Source: Raillietiella orientalis (taxonomy: Eukaryota). Taken from it: a stretch of 64,000 nt of DNA. The notes beneath the pieces are model-generated. The model saw nothing but the letters and a program-made list of their open reading frames with translations, made no database searches and was not told the origin of the DNA. This document shows positions 8,453 through 48,154 of the stretch, in pieces; within the stretch, counting starts at the first letter, position 1, and each line of letters begins with the position of its first letter. The position numbers and the translations under genes were made by a program. The stretch lies in NCBI GenBank assembly GCA_036172245.1, contig JAYWIR010000082.1, positions 1-64,000 on the forward strand, given 5' to 3'.

Positions 8453-11400
8453 GTCCATTTGACTGTGTTCAGAAGAACGTTGAGATGAGTCCAACCTTTC
8501 CTTAGGTTGGGGCAGTGTTGACTCTGTTTCGTTTTCATGGTAACGAGTGTCGGATTTAGAAAGGGAATCTTTCCTTTCGCTCTGATTCATTATGTGGTCC
8601 AAGTTTGCAACGTTTCGGGGTTTGTAATCATTTCGAAATCGGAAAATTTCACCATTGCAAGTTTACGCCTCTTCCAATAACATTTATTTTCCGAGAGTGC
8701 CAAATTTCCGTCATGGAGTACCGCATAGCCTTCCAATTGTCTGGTTTGAGAGGATGATTAAAAAGAGCCCGACTTTTGATCAGGGCGTGGCGCTTTTTAC
8801 ACTGTGCTGCTTTCATGGTAACTAGTGTTGGAATTAGAAATGGAGTCTTTTTCTTAGCTCTGAATCATTATGTGGTCCAAATTTGCAACTTTTGGGGGTT
8901 TGTAATTAATTCCAAATCAGAAAATTTCACCATTGAGAGTTTACGCCTCTTCCAGAAACATGCATTCGCAATGAGTGGTCAATTCCCGTCATTGAGAGCA
9001 ACAAAGCCTTCCAATTTCCTTGTTTCAGAGGAGGATTAAGAAACGTTCGAAATTTCATTAGGGCGTGGCACTTTGGACTCTGTATGGTTTTCATGGTAAC
9101 CAGTGTCCGAAATACAAAGGGAATCTTTACTTTGCTGAGATTCATTATGTAGTGCAAATTTTCAATTTTGGGGGGCTTCTAATCAAACGGAAATAAGCAG
9201 ATTTCACCATTGCACTTTTGCGCCTCTTCCAGAAACATCCATTTGTAGTGATTGGCCAATTCCCGTCATGGAGAGCCGCACAGCCTTCCAATTTCCTGGT
9301 TTCAGAGGATGATTAAAAAGAGTTTGACATTAAATTAAGGCATGGCACTTTGGACTCTGTGTTGTTTTCGTGGTAACCTCTGTAGGATTCGGAAAGGGAA
9401 TCTTTTCCTTCGTTCTTATTCATTGTGTGGTCCAAATTAGCAACTTTTGGGTGTTTGTAATCAATTGGAAATTAGAAGATTTCACCATTGCACTTTTACG
9501 CCTCTTCCAGAAACCTCCATTTGCAGTCAGTGGCAAATTCCCGTCGTTGAGAGCCGCACAGCCTTCCAATTTTTGGGTTTCAGAGGATGATTAAGAAGAG
9601 TCCGACATTTGATTAAGGCGTGACACTTTGGACTCTCGGTGGTCTCCATGGAAACCAGTGTCGGACTCGGAAAGGGAATATTTCCCATCGTGCTAACTCA
9701 TTACGTAGTACAAATTTGGAACCTTTAGAGTTTTCACCTCAATTCGAAATCAGCTGATTTCATCATTGCACTCTTTCGCCTCTTCCCGTGGCATCCATTT
9801 TCATCAGTGCTAATTCCCGTCATAGAAGTCCGCGCAGCAATCCACTTTCCAGGAATCAGAGAAACATTAAGAACAGTACGAATCTTCATCAGGGCGGGGC
9901 ACTTTGGACTCTCTGTTGGTTTTATTGTAACCAGTGCAGGACTCGGAAGAGGAATATTTCCCATCGTGTGAACTCATTACGTAGTCCAAATTTGGAACAT
10001 TTATAGTTTTCTCATCAATTGGAAATCAGCTCATTTCATCATTGCACTGTTGCGTCTCCTCTCTCGCATCCATTTCTACCGAGTGGAAAACTCCTGTCAT
10101 GGAGGGCCGCGCAGGAATCCAATTTCCAGGAAACACAGAAACATTAAGAAGAGTACGAGTCTTCATTAGGGCGGGGCACTTTGGATTCTCGGTGGTCTTC
10201 ATGGAATCCAGTGTCGGACTCGGAAAGGGAATATTTCCCATCGTGCTAACTCATTACGTAGTCCAAATTTGGAACATTTATAGTTTTCTCATCAATTTGA
10301 AATCAGCTGATTTCATCATTCCACTGTTGCCTTTCTTCTGTTGCATCCATATCTACCGAGTGGTAAAATCCCATCGTACAGGTCCGCGCAGCAATCCACT
10401 TTCCACGGATCAGAGAAACATTAAGAAGAGTACGAGTCTTCTTCAGGGCGGGGCACATTGGACTTTCTGTTGTTTTCATGGTAACCAGTGTCGGACTCGG
10501 AAGGGGAATCTGTCCCTTCGTGCTAACTCATTAAGTGGTCCAAATTTTAACATTCAGTGTATTCTCATCAATTCGAAATCAGCTGATTTCTTCATTGCAA
10601 TGTTGCGCCTCTTCCCGTGGTATCCATTTTGATCAGTGTCAAATTCCTGTCATAGAGGTCCGCGCAGCAATCCACTTTCCAGGAATCAGAGAAACATTAA
10701 CAAGAGTAGGAGTCTTCATCAGGGCGGGGCACTTTGGACTCACTGTTGGTTTCATGGTAACCAGTGTCGGACTCGGAAAGGGAATATTTCCCATCGTTCT
10801 AACTCATTACGTGTTCCAAATTTGGAATATTTTGTATTTTTTCATCAATTGGAAATCAGCTCATTTCATCATTGCACTGTAGCGTCTCCTCTCTCGCATC
10901 CATTTCTACCGAGTGGCAAACTCCTGTCTTGGAGGGCTGCGCAGCATTCCCATTTCTAGGATTCATAGAATCATTAAGAAGAGTACGAGTCTTCTTTAGG
11001 GCGGGGCACTTTGGATTCTCGGTGGTCTTCATGGAATCCAGTGTCGGACTCGGAAGGGGAATATTTCCCTTCGTGCTGACTTATTACGTGGTCCAAATTT
11101 GGAACATTTTGTGTATTTTCATTAATCGGAAATCAGCTGATTTCATCATTGCACTGTTGCGTCTCTTCTGTCGCATCCATTTCTACAGAGTTGCAAATTC
11201 CCGTCATGGAGGGCCTCGCAGCATTCCTATTTCTAGGAATCCGAGAAACATTCAGAATAGTACGAGTCTTCATCAGGGCGGGGCACTTTGGACTCTGTGT
11301 TGTTTTTGTGATAACCAGTGTCGGAATTGGAAAGGAAATGTTTTCCTTCGCACTGATTCATTATGTGGTCCAAATTAGGATCTTTTTCCGTTTTGCAATG

Positions 11401-11490
11401 AATTGGAAATCAGCCACTTTCACCATTGAACTGTTGCTACATTTCCCCATGCATCCATTTTCAAGGTGTTGCAATTCCCCGTTATCGGGG
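8453..11490 (-). repeat. Same satellite family in inverted orientation, ~11 increasingly diverged monomers
   Basis: Reverse complements of monomer motifs (GGGGCACTTTGGACTC, TTTCATGGTAACCAGTGTCGGA, ATTCCCGTCATGGA) recur at ~280-bp spacing and become more degenerate towards 11490. Confidence 0.95.
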
Positions 11491-26722: not shown

Positions 26723-27710
26723 AGCTCGTTGATGCAGAAAAATCTCACAAAGTAGCTGCATTTCCAGTTAAGCATCATCTGCTGGTCTCCCCTAAGTATG
26801 TGGAACCGAAATCCCTGGTGTGCATTTCATCCGTTTGATAACTTTAGGGAACACAGGATTTTCACCCATCCGCATTTGAACAAGTGCGATGTTTTGTATC
26901 ATCGATTAAGTTCGTGTTCAAAGAACTTTCTCGTGTTCGATGCTTTGAGCATCAAGTCAAACGAGAGAGAATGAACATCGAGCACTTTTCGTCAAGAAAA
27001 GGAATGCGCGAATGCACTGAGATGCTTGCTGTTCTTCTTTACATTGAATGTTCTTCAAATTTGCTGTTGTTGATTCGGCCCTTACGGCAGCTGTGTAGTT
27101 AACAGTCATGCAAAGCAATTGAAATGCGGTCTGATGAAGAAGGCGAGCCTATGCATGGGAACGTCGTGTTAGTGACAGGTCAAATATATTGGTGCTCCAC
27201 AAGAGGATAGCATTTCTTTCGGACACTTGGCAGTATTGCAATGAAGAGCTCTTCACTTCATGCTCAGCGATTGAAAAGAGTGGGAAGTGACCAGCAGTGG
27301 GATTGTTCGTAGCATGAAGCATGCCCAGTCATCAATGGAAATTTTCATCTGCACAACATGGCACTCTTGAAAGATTTGGGAAAAAATCGAGAATTTTGGA
27401 AATGGATTGGCTTGAACTGCTGACCGGATGATTAGCAGCATGCTTCTGAATGTGCAGACGTGGAATCGGAAGGAAATCCATTAGTTTGTATTGGTCCATA
27501 GACTGAAGCATTCTTGGAAGGTCAAACGGAGTGATGGGACGATGAAACGGAGCGGTTTTACACGGTTTACCGCTCTGAATACAAAAATAAGTGTTTTGAG
27601 CATAACCGTTCATCTCCATTGATTGAGGCGACCAAGTTTTTTTTCAATCAGCTGGGTGCACAGAATCAAAGGTGGGCTACTCGGGTGGAATGAGGTGACA
27701 AGAAAAGATG
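26723..27710 (+). pseudogene. Older diverged duplicate of the DHODH exon 2 3' part plus ~0.9 kb of intron 2
   Basis: Colinear with 39374-40361 (GATGCAGAAAAATCTCACA...GTGACAAGAAAAGATG) with many substitutions. It has no other DHODH exons. Confidence 0.92.
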
Positions 27711-28451
27711 TGCGTGCGGCTAATGCGAACCCAACCGCTCCGTGGCGTCAGTTTCTTCTGCCTGAGCAGTCGATCCCGCGACTCCTGCTGCCACGCGCGG
27801 AAGCCTTAACCACAAAGCCTCCGACGCGGGCACTCGCCATTTTCCCCAATCCCACATGGGGTGGGGTGAATTTATTTCCTCATTCATTCACGCTGCATGC
27901 TGGAAGTGACGAAAGTCACCGCCGCACTTGCACTTTGAAAAGTGACTGCGCTTAGGTATGCACTGGGGGAAAACAGGAGTTGAGTGTGCCTGGACGATGT
28001 CCTAGATCCAGGCAGGCACTTTTCCGCAGTTTCTTGTTCCTGTCTCTTTCCGGATGAGTCCCGAATCAGAAAGAACCCAAATGCCTTCCCTACAAACGTA
28101 CCTTATTCGTGCCTGCATCAGGGAGACGTTTGTAAATGGATTTGCATCTTTTATAGCCACGACGCACAGTAGTCTTCCTGCAGTGGCACTTTAGCGCTTC
28201 TCCCCACCAACCGCACGCCCTTAGTTTACTCGCAAACCTTGTCGTTCCCTCCCACAGTCCTAGCTAGGGTCAGCCAAATCTCCAGCTTTCGGTATTCGAC
28301 TCACTTATCTTCGTGGAAGGGCTTTTTCCAATTGCTGAAAAAAACATCCAATATTTGCTGGCATCTAAACTAGAATGCACATCAAGAAGAAAGTGACTTG
28401 AATTTCTTATTCGTTTAGTGTACCCAAGATAATACCAATATCCAGTGTTTT

Positions 28452-28837
28452 TGGACGCATTTTGTTACATATAAATGCATAAAATGGATGTGTACGGACT
28501 GCGTGGAAGTGTGACTGTTCCTACGAAGGCAAAAACACGCTCGTGATCAATCCGGATGAATGTATTGATTGCGGATACCTGAATGCCCAGTGGATGCAAT
28601 TGTAACCGATGGCTCCACAAAAGGTACTTTGGAATTAGATGAGGAGTCACTGAGCAGCGAACAAGAAACTTTCAATTTCTTCCAACGATATAAGTGCAGA
28701 ATACTCGAAAAAGTGGCCAAATATGACAGCAACCCCTGCAACCAAAGAGCAATTTCAAAAGCAGCCTCTGGATACTGCAGAAGAGCATGTAGAAAAAAAT
28801 GGACAAAGCAGCTTATTGTGATGAAAATCTGAGGTAG
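28452..28837 (+). pseudogene. fdxA: Bacterial (Wolbachia/Rickettsiales-like) 7Fe/4Fe-4S ferredoxin pseudogene
   Basis: [74 protein letters not shown]. It has lost its start codon and carries stops and indels, and has no introns. Confidence 0.88.
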
Positions 28838-29054
28838 CGTTACTGAGGGGAGAAAGAAACTTCTTGTATCTCGCGCTATCTGTTTTTGGTTTTGGTCGAA
28901 ATGGTTGCATTTTTGGGGTTTTCCATATTATTCCATACCAAACTGATGCTAATCCGTTAAAACGCAGTAGAACGGAAATTGTCAAATTTTCGGTGAATCT
29001 AAATTACTTCAGCAGGTTTCTATTGAAGATAGGAGCACCTTTCATAGCAAAATA

Positions 29055-29740
29055 TAGAGCGCTTGTGGTTGCAACCACAGCAATTTCAAGTGGGGGATTC
29101 TCTCGTGAAAGGGAAATTCTCGTCGCTGATGAGCGGAAAAGCAGTGAAGAAGGCACTTGATTGTCTTTCATATAATGCAATAGAAATAGATGTTGATATC
29201 GACATTTTTGAAAAGCTGAAAAAAGCTGATTCTGATTTTGGTTTTATTGCTCTGCATGGATCTTCCGGAGAAGATGGCTGCATTCAAGGTTTATTATAGA
29301 TTTTAGGTATAAAATAGACACATTCAGGAGTCATGGCTTCGGCTGTCGCTATGAACGAAGCAATGTCCAAGCATGTATTTCAGTCCTCGGTATTGATACC
29401 CCAAAGGGTCACGTAATTACTCGAGAAGATATGCGAAAAGACAACATCAAAATTGGCTGTCCGTACGTCCTGATGACCGATCATTGAAGGCTCAAGCGTA
29501 GGACTTTTTTTTTTTTTAATTTTCTCGCTCGTCTCAGATTAAAAAAACGTGCTTGCTGTCAATCCAGCGCGTGACGCTGCAATTCAGGAAGCAGAATGGT
29601 CATCCACTTGAATGACAAGGGATTATAGAAGTTTGTGGATCGGGTGTAGAGTTACACACGGCTGCATTGCTAGATGTATCCGAATGGAAAACCAAAAAAG
29701 AATGGCAACTATGAATGCTAACGGCTAACCATGGATTAGA
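29055..29740 (+). pseudogene. ddl: Bacterial (Wolbachia-like) D-alanine--D-alanine ligase pseudogene, 3' truncated
   Basis: [96 protein letters not shown], with multiple stops and frameshifts. Confidence 0.92.
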
Positions 29741-30599
29741 AATAGAAAAAAGGATGAATGTCGATAGCCTATCATTCTAGCATTAATAAAAAAAAGCAGC
29801 CGATGGGCCCCTAACTTTGAGTGACAAGAATCTCACTACTTTTCACGAATTGAATGAAAATTCAAGACTTTCTACAGTTTGCATGTTTTCAGTCAGCCAG
29901 CACAGGCAATGAATTGCTGCTTCTAAATACGAGTGCGTTTGTTTGTTTTTTTTAAAGAAGGATTGTCCATAGGTTGCTCCTAGGCTTGAGCATCAATAGT
30001 GTTATTGATTTTGGCAACCCAGTGTTTTCAACTTGGTGTTTTTTGATTTTATTAAGCAAAGGTTTGCTATGCATGGAATGAAAAGCTTTTTGGAAGATGA
30101 AATCAGCCCTGAGTGGATGAAGCGTTAGAAAAAAAGAACTTCCAGATGAGACTTGTGATCAAGAGTTAGAAAAAGGCATGGGAGATATTCCAGAGTCCCC
30201 TGTTGGAAAGAAAGAAAATCGTAGCATTCTATAATTTTCTCACAAATGGGAAGGAATTGGTCCAGGCCGGAATGGGAACGGTTACCATATCGCTTTGAAA
30301 TGGTGCACATCCAAAGGATCGAATTTCAGGTACCAATTGTCTTGGAGGAGGAATTGCAACGGGAGTGGTGAGCAAAGTGTTGAAAGTATTAAGACCGTGG
30401 TGATGCGGGATGATTAACGGCATGTAAATTACCTCCTTGCAGTGAAGCAAGAGCATCGAGCGTGCAAAAGGGTCATTAAGATCCCATGTGAATTGGAGTA
30501 TAATGCTGTTTTGCATCCGTGTAGTTAATTTTTTTGACTTTATAAACAAGAGATAAGAAATCCGTGATAATAATCATGTCGATGGATACGTTCATGCCC

Positions 30600-31138
30600 T
30601 TCACGCATGAGCCGGACGTGTTTGGCGCGGTTTTGACGTATGGAGTGCGTTCCCCTCCATGCGCACTTGAAGGCGCTCGCGTGTCCACGCTCGCTCTTCG
30701 CTTCCCTGGACACCGTTGTCCAGGTGCCGCCTTCTTCCCCTGGATTCTCCCCAGACTTCTTTCCAGGGGTAACGCTTTCCTCCGCCGCGCCCTCTTCTTC
30801 CGCGGAGTTCGCCTCGCGAGTCGGGGGCTGTTCCCAATTAGGGCGAGAAGCCTCTGCTGGGTTTGCAGGGCATACCCGACTCCGAGAGACAGAGGCCGTT
30901 CTTCCCGTGTTTTTTTTGTTATTTGTTTATTTATTGTCCCCTTCATCTGTTCTTTACTTGTATGGAAGCCGGCCTGCTTGCCGGTGGTCGTCGCCGACGA
31001 ACTTCTTTCACTTTTTGTTTTTTTCTCGGGAGGGAGGCGGGGGAGAATCTTTTGTATTCAGGGGACGCCGTTTCCTCCCTCCTTCCGGAATTGTGGTTTA
31101 TTTTTTAAATAAGCATCCCGGCGTCACCAGGTGAAAAC
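30600..31138 (+). mobile_element. Diverged L1/Tx1-like 3' end (mirror ~45856-46394)
   Basis: RRALFFRG resembles RRLFLRN. T-rich UTR, hairpin CCGGC-CTGCTT-GCCGG and terminal AAATAAGCATCCCGGCGTCACCAGGTGAAAAC. Confidence 0.5.
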
Positions 31139-33287
31139 CACCTTCGCATCGGAATCGCTTCGCAACCAATCGTCCAGCAGGGAACAACAACAACCTCTGC
31201 TTCCCGGAGACGGTGTTCGGGAAGGCGACGAAGGAGCGGGCCGGCTCCGAGGAGCTGACGAAAAGGGCACGTGAGGCACGGGCCGCGCCGCCAAGGAACA
31301 GCAACAGTCGAGAATCGACGCGCTCTTCCCGTCGCGGTCCAAGGGAGAGCGCCCTTGAAGTAAGGAGCAGCACCACTCCCAGCGGAGCTCCGACGGGCTT
31401 CAAGGTCATCCAGCGAGCAGTGCAGGTGCTGCGCCCACGGTCATCGAATGAGTGGTGTGGGCGCGCGCGCTTCCGACTTTGAGGCCTGCCGTCGCGGTGC
31501 TCTGCCACGCGCGAGACCTTGCGTATGGCCGGCGCATGGAAGAGGCGCGCGCGCGCTCGTGTCGCGAGGATGCACCAGGCTTTCTCCGAATCCTGCCGGG
31601 AAGGGAGTCTGCCGAACAAGTTCGCTGGATGGAGTAGACCTCCAGAAGGTAGCCTTCCCAGAGTTCCTCGCAGTTCCCAATCCTGAGTGTGCGCTCTCAG
31701 GAGTTAGATCGTCTGCTAGTGGAGACACCAGTCGTTCGGAAGGTGCCGGGGGTTGGCCGGAGGTCGAGGGCGCCAGCACCTACCGGTTAGCTCGCGTGGA
31801 TGGTCGGAGAGCGACCGATGGGAGCAAGCAGGCGCGTTCCGCCACCCGCGATTGGAGGTGCTTGCGTACGTGCCCGGCCAGTCAGCTGCTGAAGTCCGCG
31901 TTCGCACGGAAGAGTCCCCGCCGCGGAACCAAGCCGTCCCCGCTGTCGGCCCCCACGGACGACGGGGAAGACCTTTCCGCTAGGCCGCAGAGTGGCGTGC
32001 TTTCCACCCCGCTCAAGTTTGACGACTTTCAACCGTCCTGCTTCGGAGGGGAGGGGGAACGGAAGCCTGTGGGAAGCCAGCCATCCCTTCAGGGACGTTT
32101 GGCGGAGGGAAATGGACATCCAGGCATTTCTGGAAGGACGATCGGGTTCGATCTTCCGCCTGGAGTCTGCGAGAGCGCTCATCCTCGCTGCCGGACTCAG
32201 CCGACACAATCGCTTCCGCAGCGCATCCCCCGCGTGGACTACGCGTGCTCGTCTGAATAAAGGCAGTCGCTTGAAAAGGTCACGAAAAAAACAAAGTCGG
32301 ATGGATGTGTTGCACCAGAACAGAATGGAAACAGCAAGAAAATTGGCTTGCCACGTTCCGCCCAAATTGCAACATTCCAAAATTCACCCAAATTTTCACG
32401 CATTTCCATTCCAAATTCACCCAAAGTTCGACGCACGCTAAGCACGATGGATGGATGATGCCCGGCTACGAGCGCATGACTGTAAACTTGTTTCCCATGC
32501 TACCGAACAGGAAATTCGCTGGTCTTGTAAACAGCCCTTCTCCTCCAGTGCCGGAAACTGACGCGAAGAAAATAGAACATAAACTCCACAATGCAGTGAT
32601 GAAATCTTCTCTGATGCTTGCCAAGCAAGTAGGTGATTCTCAATTCAAAGAGCACAGGTGAAACAAAACAGGCGACGCGACAGCAAGAATCACGATGCAA
32701 TCAACTACGATATGCGTTCGAACCGATTTCGCACTGCCAACCATGTGCTGGTTGGCTCGCTTGCCACTGTGGGGTCACCCAATAGAAATAAGGTTAATGT
32801 GAATAAAGGCACATGGATGGCATGCCTACACATGTTCCCGTGTTCCATTTTGTGACCAGTGCAAACCGCAGCTGATCAAAAGTATGGACTCCTGAAACTC
32901 CAAGCTCGTGACATTCTTCAGCAACACCCTACACCATTGGTTGCAAATTTTTCCCAGTACGAGAGGGTCACTGTACATAACCTTTTACTAACTTTCACAG
33001 GAATCAAAAAATACTCTATTTCTGAACAACTGGATTCCAAAATTGATGCTTGGGGAGATGAGAGACTCGAGAATCATACGGCAGAGAGCTCCCTCTCAAA
33101 GCTCTGCTCAGCAAGAGCACGAGTGAATTTTTGGTGAATCTGCAAGTCACCCATGCAAGGGAAATCATGACTACCAACTTGAAGCACAAGTCATGATGCA
33201 CGTTAATCAGGAAAACTTGGCATACAGCGTTGCAGTCCATCCATTTCTGTTCTACCCACTCCGGTGCACGTTAAAAAGGAAGGTGGA

Positions 33288-34885
33288 TCAATAACGACGT
33301 CGTTTAATAATGTCCGGTTTCCACGTTATGGGGTGAGTCTCTTCAGTCTAAGGAAGAATGCTGACATGCAAACAATCGATGCAGATTGACTTACGGCAGT
33401 TTCATCCTCTCGGAAGATTTTGATGGTTTTATCGGCATCTGTTGTTATCAGCCTGCTGTTACTCAAATCAAATGTGAGTGAGAAAATTCCAGCTTCACTG
33501 TCCATGGACCCAGGCTGCACAGGGGCCTGGAGTCTTTGGAAATTGTATCCTGTGCGCCAATCCCAAAAATGAAGGGTGCCATTATCACCACCAGATACCA
33601 AAACACCATCGCTATTGACAGTCAGACAGTTAATGATGGCATTGTGCCCAACCAGATTTTGAATAAATCGTCCTTCGGGGCATTTCCACTGTTTGATGTT
33701 ATCAGGAGAAGCGGATGCAAACATGTACAGACTAGGATGCAAAATCACAGAACGAACGCTTTTCTTGTGGTTGGTCAGCGTTGTACGACATTTGCCTGCT
33801 GATAAATCCCACAGCCGGATAGTGCAGTCATGGCTTCCCGTGATGACTTCTGGTTCAGTTGCTTGGCAAACTACATCAGCAACTGTGTTAGTGTGGCCTG
33901 TCAGAGTATGTATATTGGCTTTGGTACGCATATCCCAAACACGGGCTACGGAGTCACGTCCACAAGTGACCAGCACATCAATGGTGGGATGCAAGTCAAT
34001 GCCATACACAGCACTCAAGTGACCATGATAATGGCGAATGACCTTATTGTACTCTAAATCCCAGCATTTGACCTGTCGATCTTCTCCACAACTGAACAAG
34101 TATGGCTGCCTTGGGCTGACAACAAGGCCTCGCACTGTGCTCACATGACCAGTTAAGGATAACTTGAGCTTCCCACTAGCTAGATCCCAGATCTAGCCAA
34201 ATCAACATTCTTGATGCATTCCAACACTCTTAAACAGGCTTACCTTGATAACTCGATCTGCAGCACCAGTGCAAAACCATTTGTTTTGTGGCTCCATAGC
34301 CACACAGCGAACCCATCCCAGATGACCACTGATTACTCTATGAAGCTTCCAAGGAGGATGCCAGGTAGGTTTGGGCATAGCAAGTGGTTTTCTAGGAACT
34401 ACAGCAGATGGGCTGGTCATAACAGTGGACTGAGGTGCTGGTGATTTTGGCACTCCTACTGGGGCAGGGACCAATGCTGTTTCGCTTGAAACATCATTTT
34501 CTGAGAAACAATGAAACAAAGTAAAGGTGCTCTCCCCCCCACTCCCACCCGCATCTATGCACACCAACCTTTCAGCTGTTCTTCCTCAACAACATGGACT
34601 TTTTTTTCTTTAGACACTAGATGGCGTACTGCCTGGTAGAAATCTCGCGTCTTGCATGCTAATCGCAAACTGTGCCTAAAGAACACCACTTTAGAGTGCA
34701 GGCAGATAATTCCTGAAATATTACCCTTTAGGATCAAGAGGAGCAAGGTTGCCTTGATCAGACAGAAACATGTCATGGCTCCTCTTCAGTGATCGAAACA
34801 CCAACGTGTGCACAGAATGTCTCTGCACATCCTAAAAAATACTTAACACACAGAATTGTCAGCAACTTGCACTGACCTCCCCCAT
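33288..34885 (-). CDS. PLRG1: Pleiotropic regulator 1 / Prp46 WD40 splicing factor, left-arm copy (6 exons)
   Basis: Mirror of 42111-43708 with identical ORF translations. Confidence 0.95.
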
Positions 34886-35074: not shown

Positions 35075-37653
35075 TCATTTCATCCCTGACTGCAAGGAGA
35101 GATCCACATCAACACCAACAGCATCTTCCAAACTTACGAAGCCATCAGCACTATAATGAACAAACAACAAGTAATCCAACATTCGCACAATGAAGCATTA
35201 AACCTCAAAAGTGCTTCGAGCTCTTGTTTAATTCGTGGTACCACAGGAGGACCATAGAATGCTAAAGCTGTATACAGCTGAATTAATGATGCCCCAGCTC
35301 GGATTTTTTCGTAAGCATCTCGTCCACTACTAACGCCTCCCACACCTATGATCGGTATTCTGCCTTGTGTAAGGAGATACATATCGGAAATCATCTTTGT
35401 AGACATCTCTCTCAATGGGGGTCCACTGAGACCTCCTTCCTCTTTTGAAAACCCATCCCGAAGATCAGGCCGTTCTACTGTTGTGTTACAAATCACCAAA
35501 CCATCCACCTGCACTACAGTGGCAGATCCGCTACATCAATGCTTACATACCGAAAGCTCTTTACACACTTGAGCAATCTCCTCTCTTTCATGAGGCTTGA
35601 GATCAGGAGCTAGTTTTAGTAAAATAGGCAGATTCTTGTGCCCAGATATGCTGTTCCTGGTTTCCAAAACAACAGTTAGCAATTCTCGTAATTTGCCTTG
35701 CAATTGAAAAGCACGCAAGCCCACAGTATTTGGACTAAATGAGAACTCGAAATCGATCCCACACTATTCCACTTACCTAGAAACATTGATTACAATATAA
35801 TCAGCAACATTCGAGAATAATTTCACCCCAGATATATAGTCTTCAACTGGAAAAACACTATTCTTGTTGCACCCCAAATTCACGCCAATAATTCCCTTAT
35901 AGCCAGAGCCACGTAATTTCATCAATCGCCTGTACACCTTCAAGTACCCATCACTATTGAAGCCATATCTACATATGCTAATCAAAAGAATGCAAATGAA
36001 TGGAAATTGTTACCTATTAATAATTGCCTTATCTTTGATCAGACGAAAAACTCGTGGGGGAGATGAACCCGGTTGAGGATGCATCGTAACAGAACCAACC
36101 TCCACCCAACCAAAGCCTAGCTTTATCAATCCGGTGCAGCATTCCCCTTGTTTGTCAAAACCTGCTGCTATTCCAATCGGGTTAGCAAACTGCAAACCCC
36201 AAACACATGTATTCTGGAACACAAGCAACTACCATAACCACACTGATGCAAAAAACAGATTGACCCAAACATGCAGCAACACCTGACAAATAGCATTATT
36301 GTGCTACTCCTTACAATATGAAGCACACCAAAGGAAAGAAGGTTGAGCATTCCGAATGCTGTGACAGCACAAATGTCAAAGAAAAGGGAAAAGGGTTGCA
36401 TGTTCCATGAACTTTTTGCCATGAATATACGCAGCAAGATGCACAGGATTTTCTATCCAGTGCAAGTAATCAATACAGGAATAAAATAAAGGAATTTTAT
36501 ATTCTTCAGAATCGATATTGAATTCCACTTCATGAGACCTTCATACATTCCAACTTCTTTAGCATGGATCAAACTCAGTCTGATCAACTCACTCCAATTG
36601 GCAAGGTACAACATCTTGCCACTTGCATCATCGGCATCTTTTCTTGTCACAATTCCACCTGAGTACCTCACCTTTCAATTTCTGCACTCAGATGATCAAA
36701 AAAAAAACTTCGTCACTTCAAGCATTGGAGATGAACAGTTATGCTCAAAACACTTATTTTTGTTTTCAGAGTGGTAAACCGTGTAAAACCGCTCCGTTTC
36801 ATCATCCCATCACTCCGTTTGACCTTCCAAGAATGCTTCAGTCTATGGACCTATACAAACTAATGCATTTCCTTTCAATTCCATGTCTGCACATTCAGAA
36901 GCATGCTGCTAATCATCCTGTCAGCAGTTCAAGCCAATCCATTTCCAAAATTCTCCATATTTTTCCAAATCTTTCAAGAGTGCCATGTTGTGCAGATGAA
37001 AATTTCCATTGATGACTGGGCATGCTTCATGCTACGAACAATCCCACTGTTGGTCACTTCCCACTCTTTTCAATCGCTGAGCATGAAGTGAAGAGCTCTT
37101 CATTGCAATACTGCCGAGTGTCCGAAAGAAATGCTATCCTCTTGTGGAGCACCAATATATTTGGCCTGTCACTAACACGACGTTCCCATGCATAGGCTCG
37201 CCTTCTTCATCAGACCGCATTTCAATAGGTTTGCATGACTGTTAACTACACAGCTGCCGTAAGGGCCGAATCAACAACAACAAATTTGAAGAACATTCAA
37301 TGTAAAGAAGAACAGCAAGCATCTCAGTGCATTCGCGCATTCCTTTTCTTGACGAAAAATGCTCGATGCTCATTCTCTCTCGTTTGACTTGATGCTCAAA
37401 GCATCGAACACGAGAAAGTTCTTTGAACACGAACTTAATCGATGATACAAAACATCGCACTTGTTCAAATGCGGATGGGTGAAAATCCTGTGTTCCCTAA
37501 AGTTATCAAACGGATGAAATACACACCAGGGATTTCGGATCCAAATACTTGGGGGAAAACAGCAGATGATGCTTAACTAGAAATACAGCTAACTTGTGAG
37601 ATTTTTCTGCATCAGTGAGCTGGATGAACGGCATAAGCAACCTGGTATAAAAT
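35075..37653 (-). pseudogene. DHODH: 5'-truncated DHODH copy lacking exon 1 and the start of exon 2; downstream frame intact, in-frame ATG at 37634
   Basis: Mirror of 39342-41921. Homology stops at the arm end inside exon 2. One substitution at 37615 changes Ile to Thr. Confidence 0.85.
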
Positions 37654-39341
37654 TTTTGCTCTTAAGAGATGCACACAGATGGATGACATTAATTTCAGAC
37701 CCACACCAAAGTGCAAGGGACTACAGGAAATAATGTCATCCATCTGAGAAATAAAAAATCGCGCACTCCTTAAAAAAGAAATGTTCATCTGTTTCTTTAT
37801 TTGATTTGAAATCCATAATTACAATATGCACTCTTTATAATAATCTTTTCAACATATAATTTTTAGATACAATTGGTGTGACAAACAAGTTTAGTAGGGT
37901 GTATAAAACGCTTACGTTTCGATATTGCCGAAGAAGAAGAGCATGAGCTAATTGGACAATCTGAATTCCCAAGAACTCTGAATGGACATTTAGCACGCTA
38001 GACACAGCAGAACACCAAAAATGAGCTGTAACATAATAACATGTCAATTAGTGCGCCTCGTTATTTTCGCATCTGATGGGTAGTCAGGATTCTCAAGAAT
38101 CGCGCTTTTTTCAATGGATTCATACATTCATACAGGATTCACTTCTAGCCTGTGTTTTCTATCTTTTCTCATTTTATATAGTTATCGTTTATTTGTTTTT
38201 CCTGGAATGCATTGTGATCAGTTATATATTATTTTGAGCATTGTTCGCAGATTTCTGGATTTGCTATTTTTGTTTAGATCTTAGATGTTTTTTTTCTTCT
38301 GTTTTTGCTTACATTCCTTTTCTGAAGGAACTTCAGTATTCTCCTATGCTTCCAGCTCCATGTCTTTACGATTACACGATTTATTTCAGACATTACTTAT
38401 TTATAATCCTGCCATTTCTTATGGAGTTTTCAGCACTGAAGCTCCTTATTTTGAAGTTAGCAGCATTCTCTAACAGTTTCTTTATAAGTATAATTAGTTA
38501 TCAAGAAACAGTTGCAGAACTGTATCGAAAACTATTACATTACATGCATTCGTAGGAGATTATACGAACAATGTTGCATTATTTTCCATGAAGTTGAAAT
38601 CCATTCTCCAACTAATTCTGATTGCTTGACTCCAAGTCAAGAAATTCCACTCAAGGTTTCGAAAAACATTTTAATCTGTCTTTCTTTGCTTACAATAAAA
38701 CAAATATCAAAGATTCTATCGAGAGTTGCTGTTGTTTAATATGATATCGTAAGACATTTGTGATAATCACACTCTATGAAAGATCCTGATGAAGTATGAT
38801 TTTTGAAGACACATTTGTAAGACGATCTACTACTCAAGCAAAAGGTGCTTATGTGATGATGACTTAAAATTTGTAGTAGAAATAAAGTGGTTGGGTTATC
38901 ATGGAATCAAGTACGAACATAAACTACACTTTGGGCCAGAGTACTCTAGGTATTCAAGCGAAACTTAATGCTCGGTTCTCGTCGAGTGCCCTGCAGTTTC
39001 ATTGATCACGTGATTGAGTTGGTGATCCTCTGAGTAGATGAGATCTGTTGTGAGTCGGTTTCCGTTTAAGAGCCAGTTGATAAGTTTTCGAAAAAGTTAC
39101 GGCCAGATGATTGTGATGTACATCTGCAGAATAACTCCATGAGTACATAAATGTTAGAAATGTTTCGTGGTAAATTGTCTTTCTGTGGTAACTTGATTTA
39201 TGAGTATTTTAATGTAAGATTATGCATATAGTTCATGCTCTCTTATCTGAATAATTTCTAGAAGCCAAAAACATGGTGCATTGTTGTGACTGGCGGTGTC
39301 TTGACTTTATCTGGCTTATGCTTTTATAGAGGAGAGGAGAC
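37654..39341. other. Unique AT-rich palindrome spacer (1688 bp) containing the DHODH upstream region and 5' end
   Basis: No mirror symmetry here. The DHODH N-terminal coding sequence is at its right edge. Confidence 0.9.
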
Positions 39342-41921
39342 ATTTTATACCAGGTTGCTTATGCCGTTCATCCAGCTCATTGATGCAGAAAAATCTCACA
39401 AGTTAGCTGTATTTCTAGTTAAGCATCATCTGCTGTTTTCCCCCAAGTATTTGGATCCGAAATCCCTGGTGTGTATTTCATCCGTTTGATAACTTTAGGG
39501 AACACAGGATTTTCACCCATCCGCATTTGAACAAGTGCGATGTTTTGTATCATCGATTAAGTTCGTGTTCAAAGAACTTTCTCGTGTTCGATGCTTTGAG
39601 CATCAAGTCAAACGAGAGAGAATGAGCATCGAGCATTTTTCGTCAAGAAAAGGAATGCGCGAATGCACTGAGATGCTTGCTGTTCTTCTTTACATTGAAT
39701 GTTCTTCAAATTTGTTGTTGTTGATTCGGCCCTTACGGCAGCTGTGTAGTTAACAGTCATGCAAACCTATTGAAATGCGGTCTGATGAAGAAGGCGAGCC
39801 TATGCATGGGAACGTCGTGTTAGTGACAGGCCAAATATATTGGTGCTCCACAAGAGGATAGCATTTCTTTCGGACACTCGGCAGTATTGCAATGAAGAGC
39901 TCTTCACTTCATGCTCAGCGATTGAAAAGAGTGGGAAGTGACCAACAGTGGGATTGTTCGTAGCATGAAGCATGCCCAGTCATCAATGGAAATTTTCATC
40001 TGCACAACATGGCACTCTTGAAAGATTTGGAAAAATATGGAGAATTTTGGAAATGGATTGGCTTGAACTGCTGACAGGATGATTAGCAGCATGCTTCTGA
40101 ATGTGCAGACATGGAATTGAAAGGAAATGCATTAGTTTGTATAGGTCCATAGACTGAAGCATTCTTGGAAGGTCAAACGGAGTGATGGGATGATGAAACG
40201 GAGCGGTTTTACACGGTTTACCACTCTGAAAACAAAAATAAGTGTTTTGAGCATAACTGTTCATCTCCAATGCTTGAAGTGACGAAGTTTTTTTTTTTGA
40301 TCATCTGAGTGCAGAAATTGAAAGGTGAGGTACTCAGGTGGAATTGTGACAAGAAAAGATGCCGATGATGCAAGTGGCAAGATGTTGTACCTTGCCAATT
40401 GGAGTGAGTTGATCAGACTGAGTTTGATCCATGCTAAAGAAGTTGGAATGTATGAAGGTCTCATGAAGTGGAATTCAATATCGATTCTGAAGAATATAAA
40501 ATTCCTTTATTTTATTCCTGTATTGATTACTTGCACTGGATAGAAAATCCTGTGCATCTTGCTGCGTATATTCATGGCAAAAAGTTCATGGAACATGCAA
40601 CCCTTTTCCCTTTTCTTTGACATTTGTGCTGTCACAGCATTCGGAATGCTCAACCTTCTTTCCTTTGGTGTGCTTCATATTGTAAGGAGTAGCACAATAA
40701 TGCTATTTGTCAGGTGTTGCTGCATGTTTGGGTCAATCTGTTTTTTGCATCAGTGTGGTTATGGTAGTTGCTTGTGTTCCAGAATACATGTGTTTGGGGT
40801 TTGCAGTTTGCTAACCCGATTGGAATAGCAGCAGGTTTTGACAAACAAGGGGAATGCTGCACCGGATTGATAAAGCTAGGCTTTGGTTGGGTGGAGGTTG
40901 GTTCTGTTACGATGCATCCTCAACCGGGTTCATCTCCCCCACGAGTTTTTCGTCTGATCAAAGATAAGGCAATTATTAATAGGTAACAATTTCCATTCAT
41001 TTGCATTCTTTTGATTAGCATATGTAGATATGGCTTCAATAGTGATGGGTACTTGAAGGTGTACAGGCGATTGATGAAATTACGTGGCTCTGGCTATAAG
41101 GGAATTATTGGCGTGAATTTGGGGTGCAACAAGAATAGTGTTTTTCCAGTTGAAGACTATATATCTGGGGTGAAATTATTCTCGAATGTTGCTGATTATA
41201 TTGTAATCAATGTTTCTAGGTAAGTGGAATAGTGTGGGATCGATTTCGAGTTCTCATTTAGTCCAAATACTGTGGGCTTGCGTGCTTTTCAATTGCAAGG
41301 CAAATTACGAGAATTGCTAACTGTTGTTTTGGAAACCAGGAACAGCATATCTGGGCACAAGAATCTGCCTATTTTACTAAAACTAGCTCCTGATCTCAAG
41401 CCTCATGAAAGAGAGGAGATTGCTCAAGTGTGTAAAGAGCTTTCGGTATGTAAGCATTGATGTAGCGGATCTGCCACTGTAGTGCAGGTGGATGGTTTGG
41501 TGATTTGTAACACAACAGTAGAACGGCCTGATCTTCGGGATGGGTTTTCAAAAGAGGAAGGAGGTCTCAGTGGACCCCCATTGAGAGAGATGTCTACAAA
41601 GATGATTTCCGATATGTATCTCCTTACACAAGGCAGAATACCGATCATAGGTGTGGGAGGCGTTAGTAGTGGACGAGATGCTTACGAAAAAATCCGAGCT
41701 GGGGCATCATTAATTCAGCTGTATACAGCTTTAGCATTCTATGGTCCTCCTGTGGTACCACGAATTAAACAAGAGCTCGAAGCACTTTTGAGGTTTAATG
41801 CTTCATTGTGCGAATGTTGGATTACTTGTTGTTTGTTCATTATAGTGCTGATGGCTTCGTAAGTTTGGAAGATGCTGTTGGTGTTGATGTGGATCTCTCC
41901 TTGCAGTCAGGGATGAAATGA
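39151..41921 (+). CDS. DHODH: Dihydroorotate dehydrogenase (quinone), mitochondrial, class 2. Exons 39151-39213 (tentative), 39262-39468, 40783-40982, 41028-41219, 41262-41445, 41488-41792, 41846-41921; ~408 aa
   Basis: Motifs [56 protein letters not shown] and [10 protein letters not shown], with an N-terminal hydrophobic anchor. All introns are GT-AG and restore the frame. Confidence 0.95.
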
Positions 41922-42110
41922 TTGTCAAGGGGATTTTTTTTGGAAATCGAAAATGAGGCTCATTTTCTGGGATACAGCATGTTTTTGTTTTCTACTTTGG
42001 AGGAAGGGTTGGACCCGTTGATAACCTCCTTACCGTTTCAATGAATTGCCCTCACACTGTTTCTTTGCAGTTTGCTGTTCTGACAGTCAGCACTTCCTGT
42101 TCATCTGATC

Positions 42111-43708
42111 ATGGGGGAGGTCAGTGCAAGTTGCTGACAATTCTGTGTGTTAAGTATTTTTTAGGATGTGCAGAGACATTCTGTGCACACGTTGGTGTTT
42201 CGATCACTGAAGAGGAGCCATGACATGTTTCTGTCTGATCAAGGCAACCTTGCTCCTCTTGATCCTAAAGGGTAATATTTCAGGAATTATCTGCCTGCAC
42301 TCTAAAGTGGTGTTCTTTAGGCACAGTTTGCGATTAGCATGCAAGACGCGAGATTTCTACCAGGCAGTACGCCATCTAGTGTCTAAAGAAAAAAAAGTCC
42401 ATGTTGTTGAGGAAGAACAGCTGAAAGGTTGGTGTGCATAGATGCGGGTGGGAGTGGGGGGGAGAGCACCTTTACTTTGTTTCATTGTTTCTCAGAAAAT
42501 GATGTTTCAAGCGAAACAGCATTGGTCCCTGCCCCAGTAGGAGTGCCAAAATCACCAGCACCTCAGTCCACTGTTATGACCAGCCCATCTGCTGTAGTTC
42601 CTAGAAAACCACTTGCTATGCCCAAACCTACCTGGCATCCTCCTTGGAAGCTTCATAGAGTAATCAGTGGTCATCTGGGATGGGTTCGCTGTGTGGCTAT
42701 GGAGCCACAAAACAAATGGTTTTGCACTGGTGCTGCAGATCGAGTTATCAAGGTAAGCCTGTTTAAGAGTGTTGGAATGCATCAAGAATGTTGATTTGGC
42801 TAGATCTGGGATCTAGCTAGTGGGAAGCTCAAGTTATCCTTAACTGGTCATGTGAGCACAGTGCGAGGCCTTGTTGTCAGCCCAAGGCAGCCATACTTGT
42901 TCAGTTGTGGAGAAGATCGACAGGTCAAATGCTGGGATTTAGAGTACAATAAGGTCATTCGCCATTATCATGGTCACTTGAGTGCTGTGTATGGCATTGA
43001 CTTGCATCCCACCATTGATGTGCTGGTCACTTGTGGACGTGACTCCGTAGCCCGTGTTTGGGATATGCGTACCAAAGCCAATATACATACTCTGACAGGC
43101 CACACTAACACAGTTGCTGATGTAGTTTGCCAAGCAACTGAACCAGAAGTCATCACGGGAAGCCATGACTGCACTATCCGGCTGTGGGATTTATCAGCAG
43201 GCAAATGTCGTACAACGCTGACCAACCACAAGAAAAGCGTTCGTTCTGTGATTTTGCATCCTAGTCTGTACATGTTTGCATCCGCTTCTCCTGATAACAT
43301 CAAACAGTGGAAATGCCCCGAAGGACGATTTATTCAAAATCTGGTTGGGCACAATGCCATCATTAACTGTCTGACTGTCAATAGCGATGGTGTTTTGGTA
43401 TCTGGTGGTGATAATGGCACCCTTCATTTTTGGGATTGGCGCACAGGATACAATTTCCAAAGACTCCAGGCCCCTGTGCAGCCTGGGTCCATGGACAGTG
43501 AAGCTGGAATTTTCTCACTCACATTTGATTTGAGTAACAGCAGGCTGATAACAACAGATGCCGATAAAACCATCAAAATCTTCCGAGAGGATGAAACTGC
43601 CGTAAGTCAATCTGCATCGATTGTTTGCATGTCAGCATTCTTCCTTAGACTGAAGAGACTCACCCCATAACGTGGAAACCGGACATTATTAAACGACGTC
43701 GTTATTGA
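42111..43708 (+). CDS. PLRG1: Pleiotropic regulator 1 / Prp46. Exons 42111-42119, 42165-42271, 42321-42427, 42496-42752, 42804-43601, 43649-43708
   Basis: [26 protein letters not shown]-terminus, [26 protein letters not shown]40 repeats, [12 protein letters not shown], and C-terminus [23 protein letters not shown] introns of 45-68 bp. Confidence 0.97.
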
Positions 43709-46700
43709 TCCACCTTCCTTTTTAACGTGCACCGGAGTGGGTAGAACAGAAATGGATGGACTGCAACGCTGTATGCCAAGTTTTCCTGATTAACGTGCAT
43801 CATGACTTGTGCTTCAAGTTGGTAGTCATGATTTCCCTTGCATGGGTGACTTGCAGATTCACCAAAAATTCACTCGTGCTCTTGCTGAGCAGAGCTTTGA
43901 GAGGGAGCTCTCTGCCGTATGATTCTCGAGTCTCTCATCTCCCCAAGCATCAATTTTGGAATCCAGTTGTTCAGAAATAGAGTATTTTTTGATTCCTGTG
44001 AAAGTTAGTAAAAGGTTATGTACAGTGACCCTCTCGTACTGGGAAAAATTTGCAACCAATGGTGTAGGGTGTTGCTGAAGAATGTCACGAGCTTGGAGTT
44101 TCAGGAGTCCATACTTTTGATCAGCTGCGGTTTGCACTGGTCACAAAATGGAACACGGGAACATGTGTAGGCATGCCATCCATGTGCCTTTATTCACATT
44201 AACCTTATTTCTATTGGGTGACCCCACAGTGGCAAGCGAGCCAACCAGCACATGGTTGGCAGTGCGAAATCGGTTCGAACGCATATCGTAGTTGATTGCA
44301 TCGTGATTCTTGCTGTCGCGTCGCCTGTTTTGTTTCACCTGTGCTCTTTGAATTGAGAATCACCTACTTGCTTGGCAAGCATCAGAGAAGATTTCATCAC
44401 TGCATTGTGGAGTTTATGTTCTATTTTCTTCGCGTCAGTTTCCGGCACTGGAGGAGAAGGGCTGTTTACAAGACCAGCGAATTTCCTGTTCGGTAGCATG
44501 GGAAACAAGTTTACAGTCATGCGCTCGTAGCCGGGCATCATCCATCCATCGTGCTTAGCGTGCGTCGAACTTTGGGTGAATTTGGAATGGAAATGCGTGA
44601 AAATTTGGGTGAATTTTGGAATGTTGCAATTTGGGCGGAACGTGGCAAGCCAATTTTCTTGCTGTTTCCATTCTGTTCTGGTGCAACACATCCATCCGAC
44701 TTTGTTTTTTTCGTGACCTTTTCAAGCGACTGCCTTTATTCAGACGAGCACGCGTAGTCCACGCGGGGGATGCGCTGCGGAAGCGATTGTGTCGGCTGAG
44801 TCCGGCAGCGAGGATGAGCGCTCTCGCAGACTCCAGGCGGAAGATCGAACCCGATCGTCCTTCCAGAAATGCCTGGATGTCCATTTCCCTCCGCCAAACG
44901 TCCCTGAAGGGATGGCTGGCTTCCCACAGGCTTCCGTTCCCCCTCCCCTCCGAAGCAGGACGGTTGAAAGTCGTCAAACTTGAGCGGGGTGGAAAGCACG
45001 CCACTCTGCGGCCTAGCGGAAAGGTCTTCCCCGTCGTCCGTGGGGGCCGACAGCGGGGACGGCTTGGTTCCGCGGCGGGGACTCTTCCGTGCGAACGCGG
45101 ACTTCAGCAGCTGACTGGCCGGGCACGTACGCAAGCACCTCCAATCGCGGGTGGCGGAACGCGCCTGCTTGCTCCCATCGGTCGCTCTCCGACCATCCAC
45201 GCGAGCTAACCGGTAGGTGCTGGCGCCCTCGACCTCCGGCCAACCCCCGGCACCTTCCGAACGACTGGTGTCTCCACTAGCAGACGATCTAACTCCTGAG
45301 AGCGCACACTCAGGATTGGGAACTGCGAGGAACTCTGGGAAGGCTACCTTCTGGAGGTCTACTCCATCCAGCGAACTTGTTCGGCAGACTCCCTTCCCGG
45401 CAGGATTCGGAGAAAGCCTGGTGCATCCTCGCGACACGAGCGCGCGCGCCTCTTCCATGCGCCGGCCATACGCAAGGTCTCGCGCGTGGCAGAGCACCGC
45501 GACGGCAGGCCTCAAAGTCGGAAGCGCGCGCGCCCACACCACTCATTCGATGACCGTGGGCGCAGCACCTGCACTGCTCGCTGGATGACCTTGAAGCCCG
45601 TCGGAGCTCCGCTGGGAGTGGTGCTGCTCCTTACTTCAAGGGCGCTCTCCCTTGGACCGCGACGGGAAGAGCGCGTCGATTCTCGACTGTTGCTGTTCCT
45701 TGGCGGCGCGGCCCGTGCCTCACGTGCCCTTTTCGTCAGCTCCTCGGAGCCGGCCCGCTCCTTCGTCGCCTTCCCGAACACCGTCTCCGGGAAGCAGAGG
45801 TTGTTGTTGTTCCCTGCTGGACGATTGGTTGCGAAGCGATTCCGATGCGAAGGTGGTTTTCACCTGGTGACGCCGGGATGCTTATTTAAAAAATAAACCA
45901 CAATTCCGGAAGGAGGGAGGAAACGGCGTCCCCTGAATACAAAAGATTCTCCCCCGCCTCCCTCCCGAGAAAAAAACAAAAAGTGAAAGAAGTTCGTCGG
46001 CGACGACCACCGGCAAGCAGGCCGGCTTCCATACAAGTAAAGAACAGATGAAGGGGACAATAAATAAACAAATAACAAAAAAAACACGGGAAGAACGGCC
46101 TCTGTCTCTCGGAGTCGGGTATGCCCTGCAAACCCAGCAGAGGCTTCTCGCCCTAATTGGGAACAGCCCCCGACTCGCGAGGCGAACTCCGCGGAAGAAG
46201 AGGGCGCGGCGGAGGAAAGCGTTACCCCTGGAAAGAAGTCTGGGGAGAATCCAGGGGAAGAAGGCGGCACCTGGACAACGGTGTCCAGGGAAGCGAAGAG
46301 CGAGCGTGGACACGCGAGCGCCTTCAAGTGCGCATGGAGGGGAACGCACTCCATACGTCAAAACCGCGCCAAACACGTCCGGCTCATGCGTGAAGGGCAT
46401 GAACGTATCCATCGACATGATTATTATCACGGATTTCTTATCTCTTGTTTATAAAGTCAAAAAAATTAACTACACGGATGCAAAACAGCATTATACTCCA
46501 ATTCACATGGGATCTTAATGACCCTTTTGCACGCTCGATGCTCTTGCTTCACTGCAAGGAGGTAATTTACATGCCGTTAATCATCCCGCATCACCACGGT
46601 CTTAATACTTTCAACACTTTGCTCACCACTCCCGTTGCAATTCCTCCTCCAAGACAATTGGTACCTGAAATTCGATCCTTTGGATGTGCACCATTTCAAA

Positions 46701-47253
46701 GCGATATGGTAACCGTTCCCATTCCGGCCTGGACCAATTCCTTCCCATTTGTGAGAAAATTATAGAATGCTACGATTTTCTTTCTTTCCAACAGGGGACT
46801 CTGGAATATCTCCCATGCCTTTTTCTAACTCTTGATCACAAGTCTCATCTGGAAGTTCTTTTTTTCTAACGCTTCATCCACTCAGGGCTGATTTCATCTT
46901 CCAAAAAGCTTTTCATTCCATGCATAGCAAACCTTTGCTTAATAAAATCAAAAAACACCAAGTTGAAAACACTGGGTTGCCAAAATCAATAACACTATTG
47001 ATGCTCAAGCCTAGGAGCAACCTATGGACAATCCTTCTTTAAAAAAAACAAACAAACGCACTCGTATTTAGAAGCAGCAATTCATTGCCTGTGCTGGCTG
47101 ACTGAAAACATGCAAACTGTAGAAAGTCTTGAATTTTCATTCAATTCGTGAAAAGTAGTGAGATTCTTGTCACTCAAAGTTAGGGGCCCATCGGCTGCTT
47201 TTTTTTATTAATGCTAGAATGATAGGCTATCGACATTCATCCTTTTTTCTATT

Positions 47254-47937
47254 TCTAATCCATGGTTAGCCGTTAGCATTCATAGTTGCCATTCTTTTTT
47301 GGTTTTCCATTCGGATACATCTAGCAATGCAGCCGTGTGTAACTCTACACCCGATCCACAAACTTCTATAATCCCTTGTCATTCAAGTGGATGACCATTC
47401 TGCTTCCTGAATTGCAGCGTCACGCGCTGGATTGACAGCAAGCACGTTTTTTTAATCTGAGACGAGCGAGAAAATTAAAAAAAAAAAGTCCTACGCTTGA
47501 GCCTTCAATGATCGGTCATCAGGACGTACGGACAGCCAATTTTGATGTTGTCTTTTCGCATATCTTCTCGAGTAATTACGTGACCCTTTGGGGTATCAAT
47601 ACCGAGGACTGAAATACATGCTTGGACATTGCTTCGTTCATAGCGACAGCCGAAGCCATGACTCCTGAATGTGTCTATTTTATACCTAAAATCTATAATA
47701 AACCTTGAATGCAGCCATCTTCTCCGGAAGATCCATGCAGAGCAATAAAACCAAAATCAGAATCAGCTTTTTTCAGCTTTTCAAAAATGTCGATATCAAC
47801 ATCTATTTCTATTGCATTATATGAAAGACAATCAAGTGCCTTCTTCACTGCTTTTCCGCTCATCAGCGACGAGAATTTCCCTTTCACGAGAGAATCCCCC
47901 ACTTGAAATTGCTGTGGTTGCAACCACAAGCGCTCTA
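47254..47937 (-). pseudogene. ddl: Mirror copy of the Wolbachia-like ddl pseudogene
   Basis: Reverse complement of 29055-29740. Confidence 0.92.
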
Positions 47938-48154
47938 TATTTTGCTATGAAAGGTGCTCCTATCTTCAATAGAAACCTGCTGAAGTAATTTAGATTCACC
48001 GAAAATTTGACAATTTCCGTTCTACTGCGTTTTAACGGATTAGCATCAGTTTGGTATGGAATAATATGGAAAACCCCAAAAATGCAACCATTTCGACCAA
48101 AACCAAAAACAGATAGCGCGAGATACAAGAAGTTTCTTTCTCCCCTCAGTAACG

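Follow-up and report, generated by a model that had tools for sequence, protein, structure and literature searches.

A decayed tract of Wolbachia-like fdxA and ddl sequence in an animal contig from Raillietiella orientalis

The fdxA and ddl pseudogenes

We analyzed a stretch of 64,000 nucleotides (the window, to which all coordinates refer unless a locus is named) from contig JAYWIR010000082.1 of the Raillietiella orientalis assembly GCA_036172245.1. At about 28064–30570, the window carries a tract of about 2.5 kb that resembles the DNA of the bacterium Wolbachia and contains the remains of two bacterial genes, the ferredoxin gene fdxA and the D-alanine--D-alanine ligase gene ddl. The tract was delimited by blastn and whole-genome searches against 12 Wolbachia genomes, in which E values reached 2.4e-214, so that a chance match is far excluded. 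Apart from a mirror copy of the tract (described below), the rest of the window had no Wolbachia match in these 12 genomes (39401–44099 was covered only through its mirror sequence, which was searched). The G+C profile agrees with this extent: the tract, with 40.7% G+C, lies between richer flanks (50.1% and 58.8%), and at about 30600 the content jumps abruptly from 33% to 62%. An earlier interpretation made from the letters of the window, referred to here as the sequence-only reading, had placed an insert with fdx and ddl at 28330–29745; it described the gene content correctly but not the true extent. Below, L denotes fetched loci, G genomes of the genus Wolbachia and P Ddl proteins.

The fdxA pseudogene, of the 7Fe ferredoxin type, occupies 28452–28837 on the plus strand, and was identified through the Wolbachia loci. 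It spans all 124 codons, keeps the native stop position and, over 358 columns, shares 82.1% identity with L001. The start codon has changed from ATG to TGG, four of the six indels shift the frame, and two deletions (8 nt and 7 nt) take out codons for the cluster cysteines. The peptides that remain, obtained by stop-to-stop translation of 28330–29745, matched the NCBIfam family FdxA_Protbact (E 5.1e-9) and, weakly, Pfam Fer4 and DUF3470. On the NCBIfam FdxA model NF045490 the score was 36.3 bits, as compared to a cut-off of 135, and the full-length match with intact cluster cysteines is absent. The fdxA copy in the window is a pseudogene of the FdxA family and not a member protein. When the fdx piece was searched against proteins of similar length, neither of the two candidates scored. 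The ferredoxin insertion ILELDEELLSSEQ, which the sequence-only reading had pointed out, occurs in Wolbachia FdxA.

Downstream of fdxA, a spacer of 227 nt (28838–29064, plus strand), whose counterpart in some Wolbachia is collinear with it, leads to the ddl pseudogene. The latter extends on the same strand from 29065 to about 29680 and retains approximately codons 1–190 of about 317. A piece of 83 residues (29048–29299) matched the N-terminal domain Dala_Dala_lig_N (PF01820) with 35.3 bits, above the cut-off of 34.6, as well as NCBIfam PRK01372 (E 4e-17). Neither the C-terminal ATP-grasp domain (PF07478) nor an open frame is present: homology stops near codon 190, about 40% of the gene is lacking at the 3' side, and possible degenerate remains reach as far as about 29745. 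In the reference frame, nonsense substitutions at 29297 and 29315 are joined by more in-frame stops, and eight indels relative to L002 shift the frame. The ddl part is 83–84% identical to G006 and G007, and 70.8–80.6% identical to 12 Wolbachia loci over 545 columns. The sequence-only reading had described two co-oriented, decayed pseudogenes about 220 bp apart, and their strand, their distance and their stops and indels are all as it said.

Wolbachia donor and neutral decay

The protein search with the Ddl piece scored 320 among 441 candidates. In the best 120 of these 320, identities were 68–78%, and the named hits were Wolbachia, Wolbachia-like 'Rickettsiales' metagenome-assembled genomes (MAGs) and insects known to carry Wolbachia DNA. 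Of 80 ddl loci that we fetched, 12 belong to Wolbachia or to MAGs titled 'Rickettsiales bacterium', and the other 68 were 42–53% identical to the Ddl query. With blastn, 28190–28886 was 71–76% identical to the 12 loci at the nucleotide level, and 28949–29676 was 73–83% identical. The fdxA–ddl region was also matched in all 60 of the 60 Wolbachia genus genomes, with the best identities, in the ddl part, in G007 (84%), G006 (83%) and G044 (82%). Since none of these genomes exceeded 84%, no sampled species is close to the donor.

The Ddl translation of the window is 63–73% identical to 12 Wolbachia proteins and 40–44% identical to those of six other alphaproteobacteria. In a tree of 192 residues from the 12 Wolbachia proteins and the window, rooted on the other six alphaproteobacteria, the window is nested in Wolbachia with a bootstrap of 99% and a branch length of 0.37. 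The 899 columns of fdxA and ddl, analysed as a nucleotide tree, gave a similar picture, again with a long branch for the window (0.26) and with bootstraps from 55 to 78. The donor is Wolbachia. Both peptides had been taken as close to Wolbachia proteins in the sequence-only reading, and nucleotide identities of 70–84%, together with the matches in every genus genome and the 99% clade, bear this out. The search against Rickettsiales that it proposed points the same way, as the named hits among the best 120 for Ddl are Wolbachia, Wolbachia-like MAGs or insects with Wolbachia DNA, and Ddl of six other alphaproteobacteria reaches only 40–44%. Its proposal to place the sequence among the Wolbachia supergroups succeeded in part: the window falls inside Wolbachia, but the internal bootstraps, all below 80, do not assign it to a supergroup.

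The gene order of the window also occurs in living Wolbachia. In 5 of the 12 fetched loci, fdxA lies directly upstream of ddl in the same orientation, and in 33 of the 60 genus genomes it lies at most 3 kb upstream on the same strand, as read from the match table. The whole series of fdxA, spacer and ddl forms one collinear high-scoring segment pair in 5 of the 60 genomes; a single pair of this kind joins 28397–29496 to 9341–10428 of L007. In L002 and L011, fdxA and ddl are separated by an open reading frame (ORF) of the RDD family (the Pfam RDD match was tested for the L011 ORF). The order fdx–hypothetical–ddl, suggested by the sequence-only reading, therefore exists in Wolbachia but not in the window, which is without the middle gene.

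To follow the decay, we used sites that are invariant across 12 Wolbachia genes, with leave-one-out controls on live Wolbachia. In ddl, 29 of 261 such sites were changed (controls 2–21), distributed over codon positions 1, 2 and 3 as 11 of 99, 15 of 133 and 3 of 29. In fdxA, 19 of 199 were changed (controls 1–16), with 6 of 89, 11 of 91 and 2 of 19 at the respective positions. The near-equal rates at the three codon positions indicate drift without selection. Of the 48 changes, 36 replaced A/T by G/C and five replaced G/C by A/T, a shift towards the composition of the GC-richer flanks, and the G+C content has risen to 40.9% in ddl and 41.5% in fdxA, as compared to 30.8–38.2% and 29.9–35.3% in Wolbachia. 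The G/C-ward changes and the raised G+C content argue for a long stay under a GC-richer mutational regime. At generic invertebrate rates, a neutral change of about 10% would put the age at millions of years, or up to tens of millions.

Mosaic structure, palindrome and host flanks

At least five blocks make up the tract, a mosaic whose best matches are unlinked or on separate contigs in present-day Wolbachia genomes. The flanking blocks find their best matches away from fdxA–ddl: far off along the same chromosome in G003 and G005, and on a separate contig where the genome is a draft. Additional matches were obtained in 11 of the 12 genomes; eight of them have further blocks, and in three the sole addition is fdxA, whose own locus there is apart from ddl.

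At the left end, 28064–28185 (minus strand) is a fragment of a gene for an RDD-family membrane protein, covering approximately residues 100–141 of an ORF of 192 residues and inverted relative to fdxA. It is 75% identical to contig C6 of G001 over 122 nt (blastn) and also matches L082, where blastx leads to the ORF at 1426–2001 on the minus strand, which has a Pfam RDD match of 7.7e-22. Next to it, 28171–28451 (plus strand) is sequence found upstream of fdxA in Wolbachia, aligned with L002, L011, L004 and L001; with blastn, 28190–28860 is 72% identical to L002. To the right of ddl, 29724–29889 (minus strand) stems from another locus and matches an unannotated stretch of contig C7 of G004 with 70% identity (blastn, E 3.8e-8), and also with 67% over 169 nt (E 2.5e-17). 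A further block from another locus, 29984–30384 (plus strand), comprises the 3' part of a hypothetical ORF of 113 residues and the sequence downstream of it; it matches with 70–76% identity and E values down to 3.9e-77, and its counterpart in G003 lies between murD/COQ9-family genes and rsmD. The last block, 30375–30570 (plus strand), corresponds to sequence downstream of secF in G005, with 69% identity (blastn, E 7.8e-12) and also 68.5% over 197 nt. Rfam gave no matches on 27000–32000 (E ≤ 0.1), in the whole window, or on the Wolbachia loci L081–L085, L001, L002 and L011, so that the extra blocks correspond to no known RNA genes. ARAGORN found no genes in the whole window, and RDD was the sole family named by NCBIfam and Pfam for the ORFs under the extra blocks.

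Within ddl, a short dispersed Wolbachia repeat reads VNPARDAAIQEAEW... in the alignment (29535–29621, plus strand). It is inserted at a site shared with L002, L004 and L011, and is absent in L001, L003 and L007. The interruption of ddl at about 29510–29620 is the place where this repeat was inserted and does not mark a loss of homology. The core of the repeat gave matches of 30–56 nt with 79–93% identity at many places in Wolbachia genomes. Of the 12 genomes searched, 7 have such matches, at two to nine places each in G001, G003, G004, G005, G006 and G007, and at one place in G010, beside its own ddl. The repeat looks like a Wolbachia palindromic element (WPE); we use the name for this likeness and do not assign the repeat to the family. 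The NCBIfam WPE model TIGR02697 gave no hit at E ≤ 1 for 29543–29608, a weak test, as the translation has only 22 residues. WPE-like elements stand in the ddl frame at about 4330–4460 of L002, 10480–10590 of L004 and 10480–10600 of L011, and also in the proteins P0003, P0005, P0036 and P0088, with a shorter form in P0043. The presence of the element in L002 and its absence in L001, its sister in the nucleotide tree, indicate frequent gain or loss.

The tract lies in the left arm (14669–37662) of a palindrome, which carries it together with host genes. A unique, AT-rich spacer of 1670 nt (37663–39332) separates this arm from the right one (39333–62323, from the arm alignment). The arms, of about 23 kb, differ by two substitutions and three indels in 22,981 aligned columns. 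The substitutions are close to opposite ends of the arms, the outer one at a distance of 16 nt and the inner one at about 40 nt. Of the indels, one changes a poly-T run of the tract, one a GC dinucleotide repeat and one a poly-A run. The arm alignment locates a mirror copy of the whole tract at 46424–48928 on the minus strand, with the same Wolbachia matches on the opposite strand, in agreement with the duplication by a palindrome that the sequence-only reading had reported. The two copies differ solely in the length of the poly-T run. Since every lesion is common to both, the insertion is far older than the event that made the copies alike, be it the duplication or the most recent gene conversion between the arms. 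The spacer is not self-complementary, and the outer flanks are unique and unlike each other, with the sequence continuing on both sides.

The host context was examined by a Pfam scan of 127 stop-to-stop ORFs of at least 90 residues in 8000–39400, in which three had matches: two WD40 pieces and one DHODH piece. The DHODH gene (35203–36213, minus strand) encodes a protein with 50–53% identity to those of oyster, damselfly and amphioxus. Its last exon is 63–74% identical to the mitochondrial DHODH of vertebrates, molluscs, amphioxus, an echinoderm and an insect alike, and its introns are canonical GT–AG introns of 45, 42 and 42 nt. Very short introns are found in nematodes and in some other compact genomes, which is just a hint. 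A PLRG1-like WD40 gene lies at 33326–34585 on the minus strand. Both genes are on the same contig as the tract, 3–6 kb away from it, and they identify the flanks as animal nuclear DNA. At the level of the assembly, the tract is thus contiguous with host nuclear DNA.

Several other features of the surroundings were recorded. A possible first exon of DHODH lies at 37527–37661; the two palindrome copies of this gene stand head to head across the spacer, and the WD40 gene is duplicated likewise. Directly to the right of the tract, 30600–32400 reaches 61–69% G+C in places and has long ORFs on both strands, with no Pfam match. A dispersed host repeat of about 990 nt, also with no Pfam match, is present at 26723–27710 and 36635–37621, with mirrors at 49282–50269 and 39374–40361. 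Each arm therefore has two inverted copies, about 95% alike; one lies about 350 nt to the left of the tract, and the other abuts the inner arm end. The window opens with an array of a 278-nt satellite (1–8452; 30.4 copies, 95% match), and 8509–11437 holds 10.6 more diverged copies (79%) of the same unit (277 nt) in the opposite orientation.

Origin of the tract and comparison with known systems

We interpret the tract at about 28064–30570 as a nuclear Wolbachia transfer in an animal chromosome, a fossil that is now without function, and assign this interpretation a probability of about 0.9. The sequence derives from Wolbachia, and its inactivating mutations and its composition from unlinked loci show that it is no part of a living bacterium. 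Fragments of a Wolbachia genome may have entered a germline nucleus and been inserted at a break, whether as a patchwork or in the form of a larger piece that deletion and inversion trimmed afterwards. The tract would then have drifted neutrally under the mutational regime of the host. Much later, the surrounding 23 kb would have been copied in inverted orientation, or homogenised by gene conversion, giving rise to the second copy.

Some observations weigh against parts of this interpretation. The position of the window within Wolbachia has internal bootstraps below 80 in the protein tree and in the nucleotide tree. Two live lineages, L009 and L005, also have raised counts in the invariant-site controls, and part of the substitutions at invariant sites could have preceded the transfer and arisen in the donor lineage. 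The two junctions between host and Wolbachia sequence are known from the assembly alone, and the near-perfect identity of the arms is also expected from an assembly artefact.

The alternatives concern the donor, the reality of the insertion, its function and its copy number. The two closest genomes, L001 and L002, are titled just 'Rickettsiales bacterium', as would suit a donor from the Rickettsiales outside Wolbachia. Such a donor is nevertheless highly improbable, because the MAG proteins P0001 and P0003 share 79–92% identity between themselves and with named Wolbachia Ddl, and lie inside the genus set and the 99% clade, and because the similarity of the window to non-Wolbachia Ddl is so much lower. 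There is an equally slight chance that reads of a live Wolbachia were misassembled into a host contig, although Wolbachia reads are described as common in invertebrate sequencing projects (PMC4299567). Live contaminants would not be expected to have both genes broken, with substitutions that ignore codon position and run towards G/C, nor blocks from unlinked places or separate contigs packed into 2.5 kb; furthermore, animal sequence lies on both sides, and none of the 60 genomes is more than 84% identical. The sequence-only reading had likewise argued from the decay for an old transfer rather than contamination, and the lesions, the codon-position-blind substitutions, the drift from A/T to G/C and the animal flanks strengthen that case. 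Least probable of all is the domestication of ddl or fdxA as a functional host gene. Peptidoglycan genes that function after transfer to the insect nucleus are known, as in mealybugs (PMC6838666). Against a similar fate here, the longest stop-free piece of ddl is the one of 83 residues and the ATP-grasp half is absent, while fdxA has lost cysteine codons and the substitution pattern reveals no constraint.

The copy number is less certain. In reality the chromosome may carry the tract once, with the 23-kb palindrome being an assembly artefact that a fold-back, or a mis-join through an inverted repeat, produced; this we consider a serious possibility, albeit with less than even chances. The palindrome is known from the assembly alone; it has just two substitutions in 22,981 columns, its indels fall in simple repeats, where long-read errors concentrate, and the dispersed repeat of about 990 nt that abuts the inner arm ends could mislead an assembler. 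On the other hand, a unique spacer of 1670 nt that is not self-complementary does not suit a simple fold-back read, the outer flanks are different and unique and the sequence runs on at both sides, and both substitutions are near the arm ends, as expected where gene conversion tracts end. We infer that the palindrome is more likely biological than not.

A more specific version of the nuclear transfer is speculative and, taken as a whole, rather unlikely. It would make the host an animal lineage with very short introns (42–45 nt), the tract a palaeosymbiosis record left by an ancient Wolbachia lineage distinct from the 60 species sampled, and the palindrome a real one kept by gene conversion. 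The host would then be an animal without a close relative in the searched protein collection, and perhaps one that is not known as a Wolbachia host or is one no longer. Gene conversion would also help to drive the G/C-ward drift of the tract.

As a nuclear transfer, the tract is a record of past germline Wolbachia in this animal lineage, from a donor not near any of the 60 genus representatives. For annotation it calls for caution, as ddl and fdxA here are neither bacterial contamination nor host genes. It also provides a neutral marker, with about 10% change at otherwise invariant sites. This amount of change, together with the near-identical palindrome copies, implies that the insertion long preceded the duplication, and given the host mutation rate the marker could date both events.

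In the comparison with known systems, the palindrome resembles those of primate sex chromosomes, where large near-identical palindromes are kept alike by arm-to-arm gene conversion. The resemblance includes arms of tens of kb that are more than 99.9% identical, a unique spacer and genes doubled head to head, with the differences of the window located at the arm ends; unlike the primate palindromes, the present one is an observation from an assembly. Wolbachia palindromic elements insert in frame, and the repeat of the window shares with them a dispersed core of 30–56 nt and a position within the ddl frame of L002, L004 and L011, but its 22-residue translation has no match to the WPE model. Nine copies of the element each in wUni and wVitA are given in PMC4898810.

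The nuclear peptidoglycan genes of mealybugs (PMC6838666) likewise place a bacterial cell-wall pathway gene in an animal genome. Those genes are intact and expressed, whereas the ddl of the window is truncated and carries stops and frameshifts. The closest parallels are the nuclear Wolbachia transfers ('nuwts'), or genomic fossils, known from arthropods and nematodes, such as those of Dictyocaulus viviparus (PMC4046930) and Drosophila ananassae (PMC4299567). These transfers share with the tract short Wolbachia fragments, inactivating mutations, co-assembly with the host, rearrangement relative to living Wolbachia and the record of an infection. The tract differs from them in that a single one of 2.5 kb is seen, known from this window, that it is doubled by a near-perfect palindrome, and that its donor is no closer than 84% to the 60 genus representatives. 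With these particulars of its own, the tract is one more case of a well-described phenomenon, the nuclear Wolbachia transfer.

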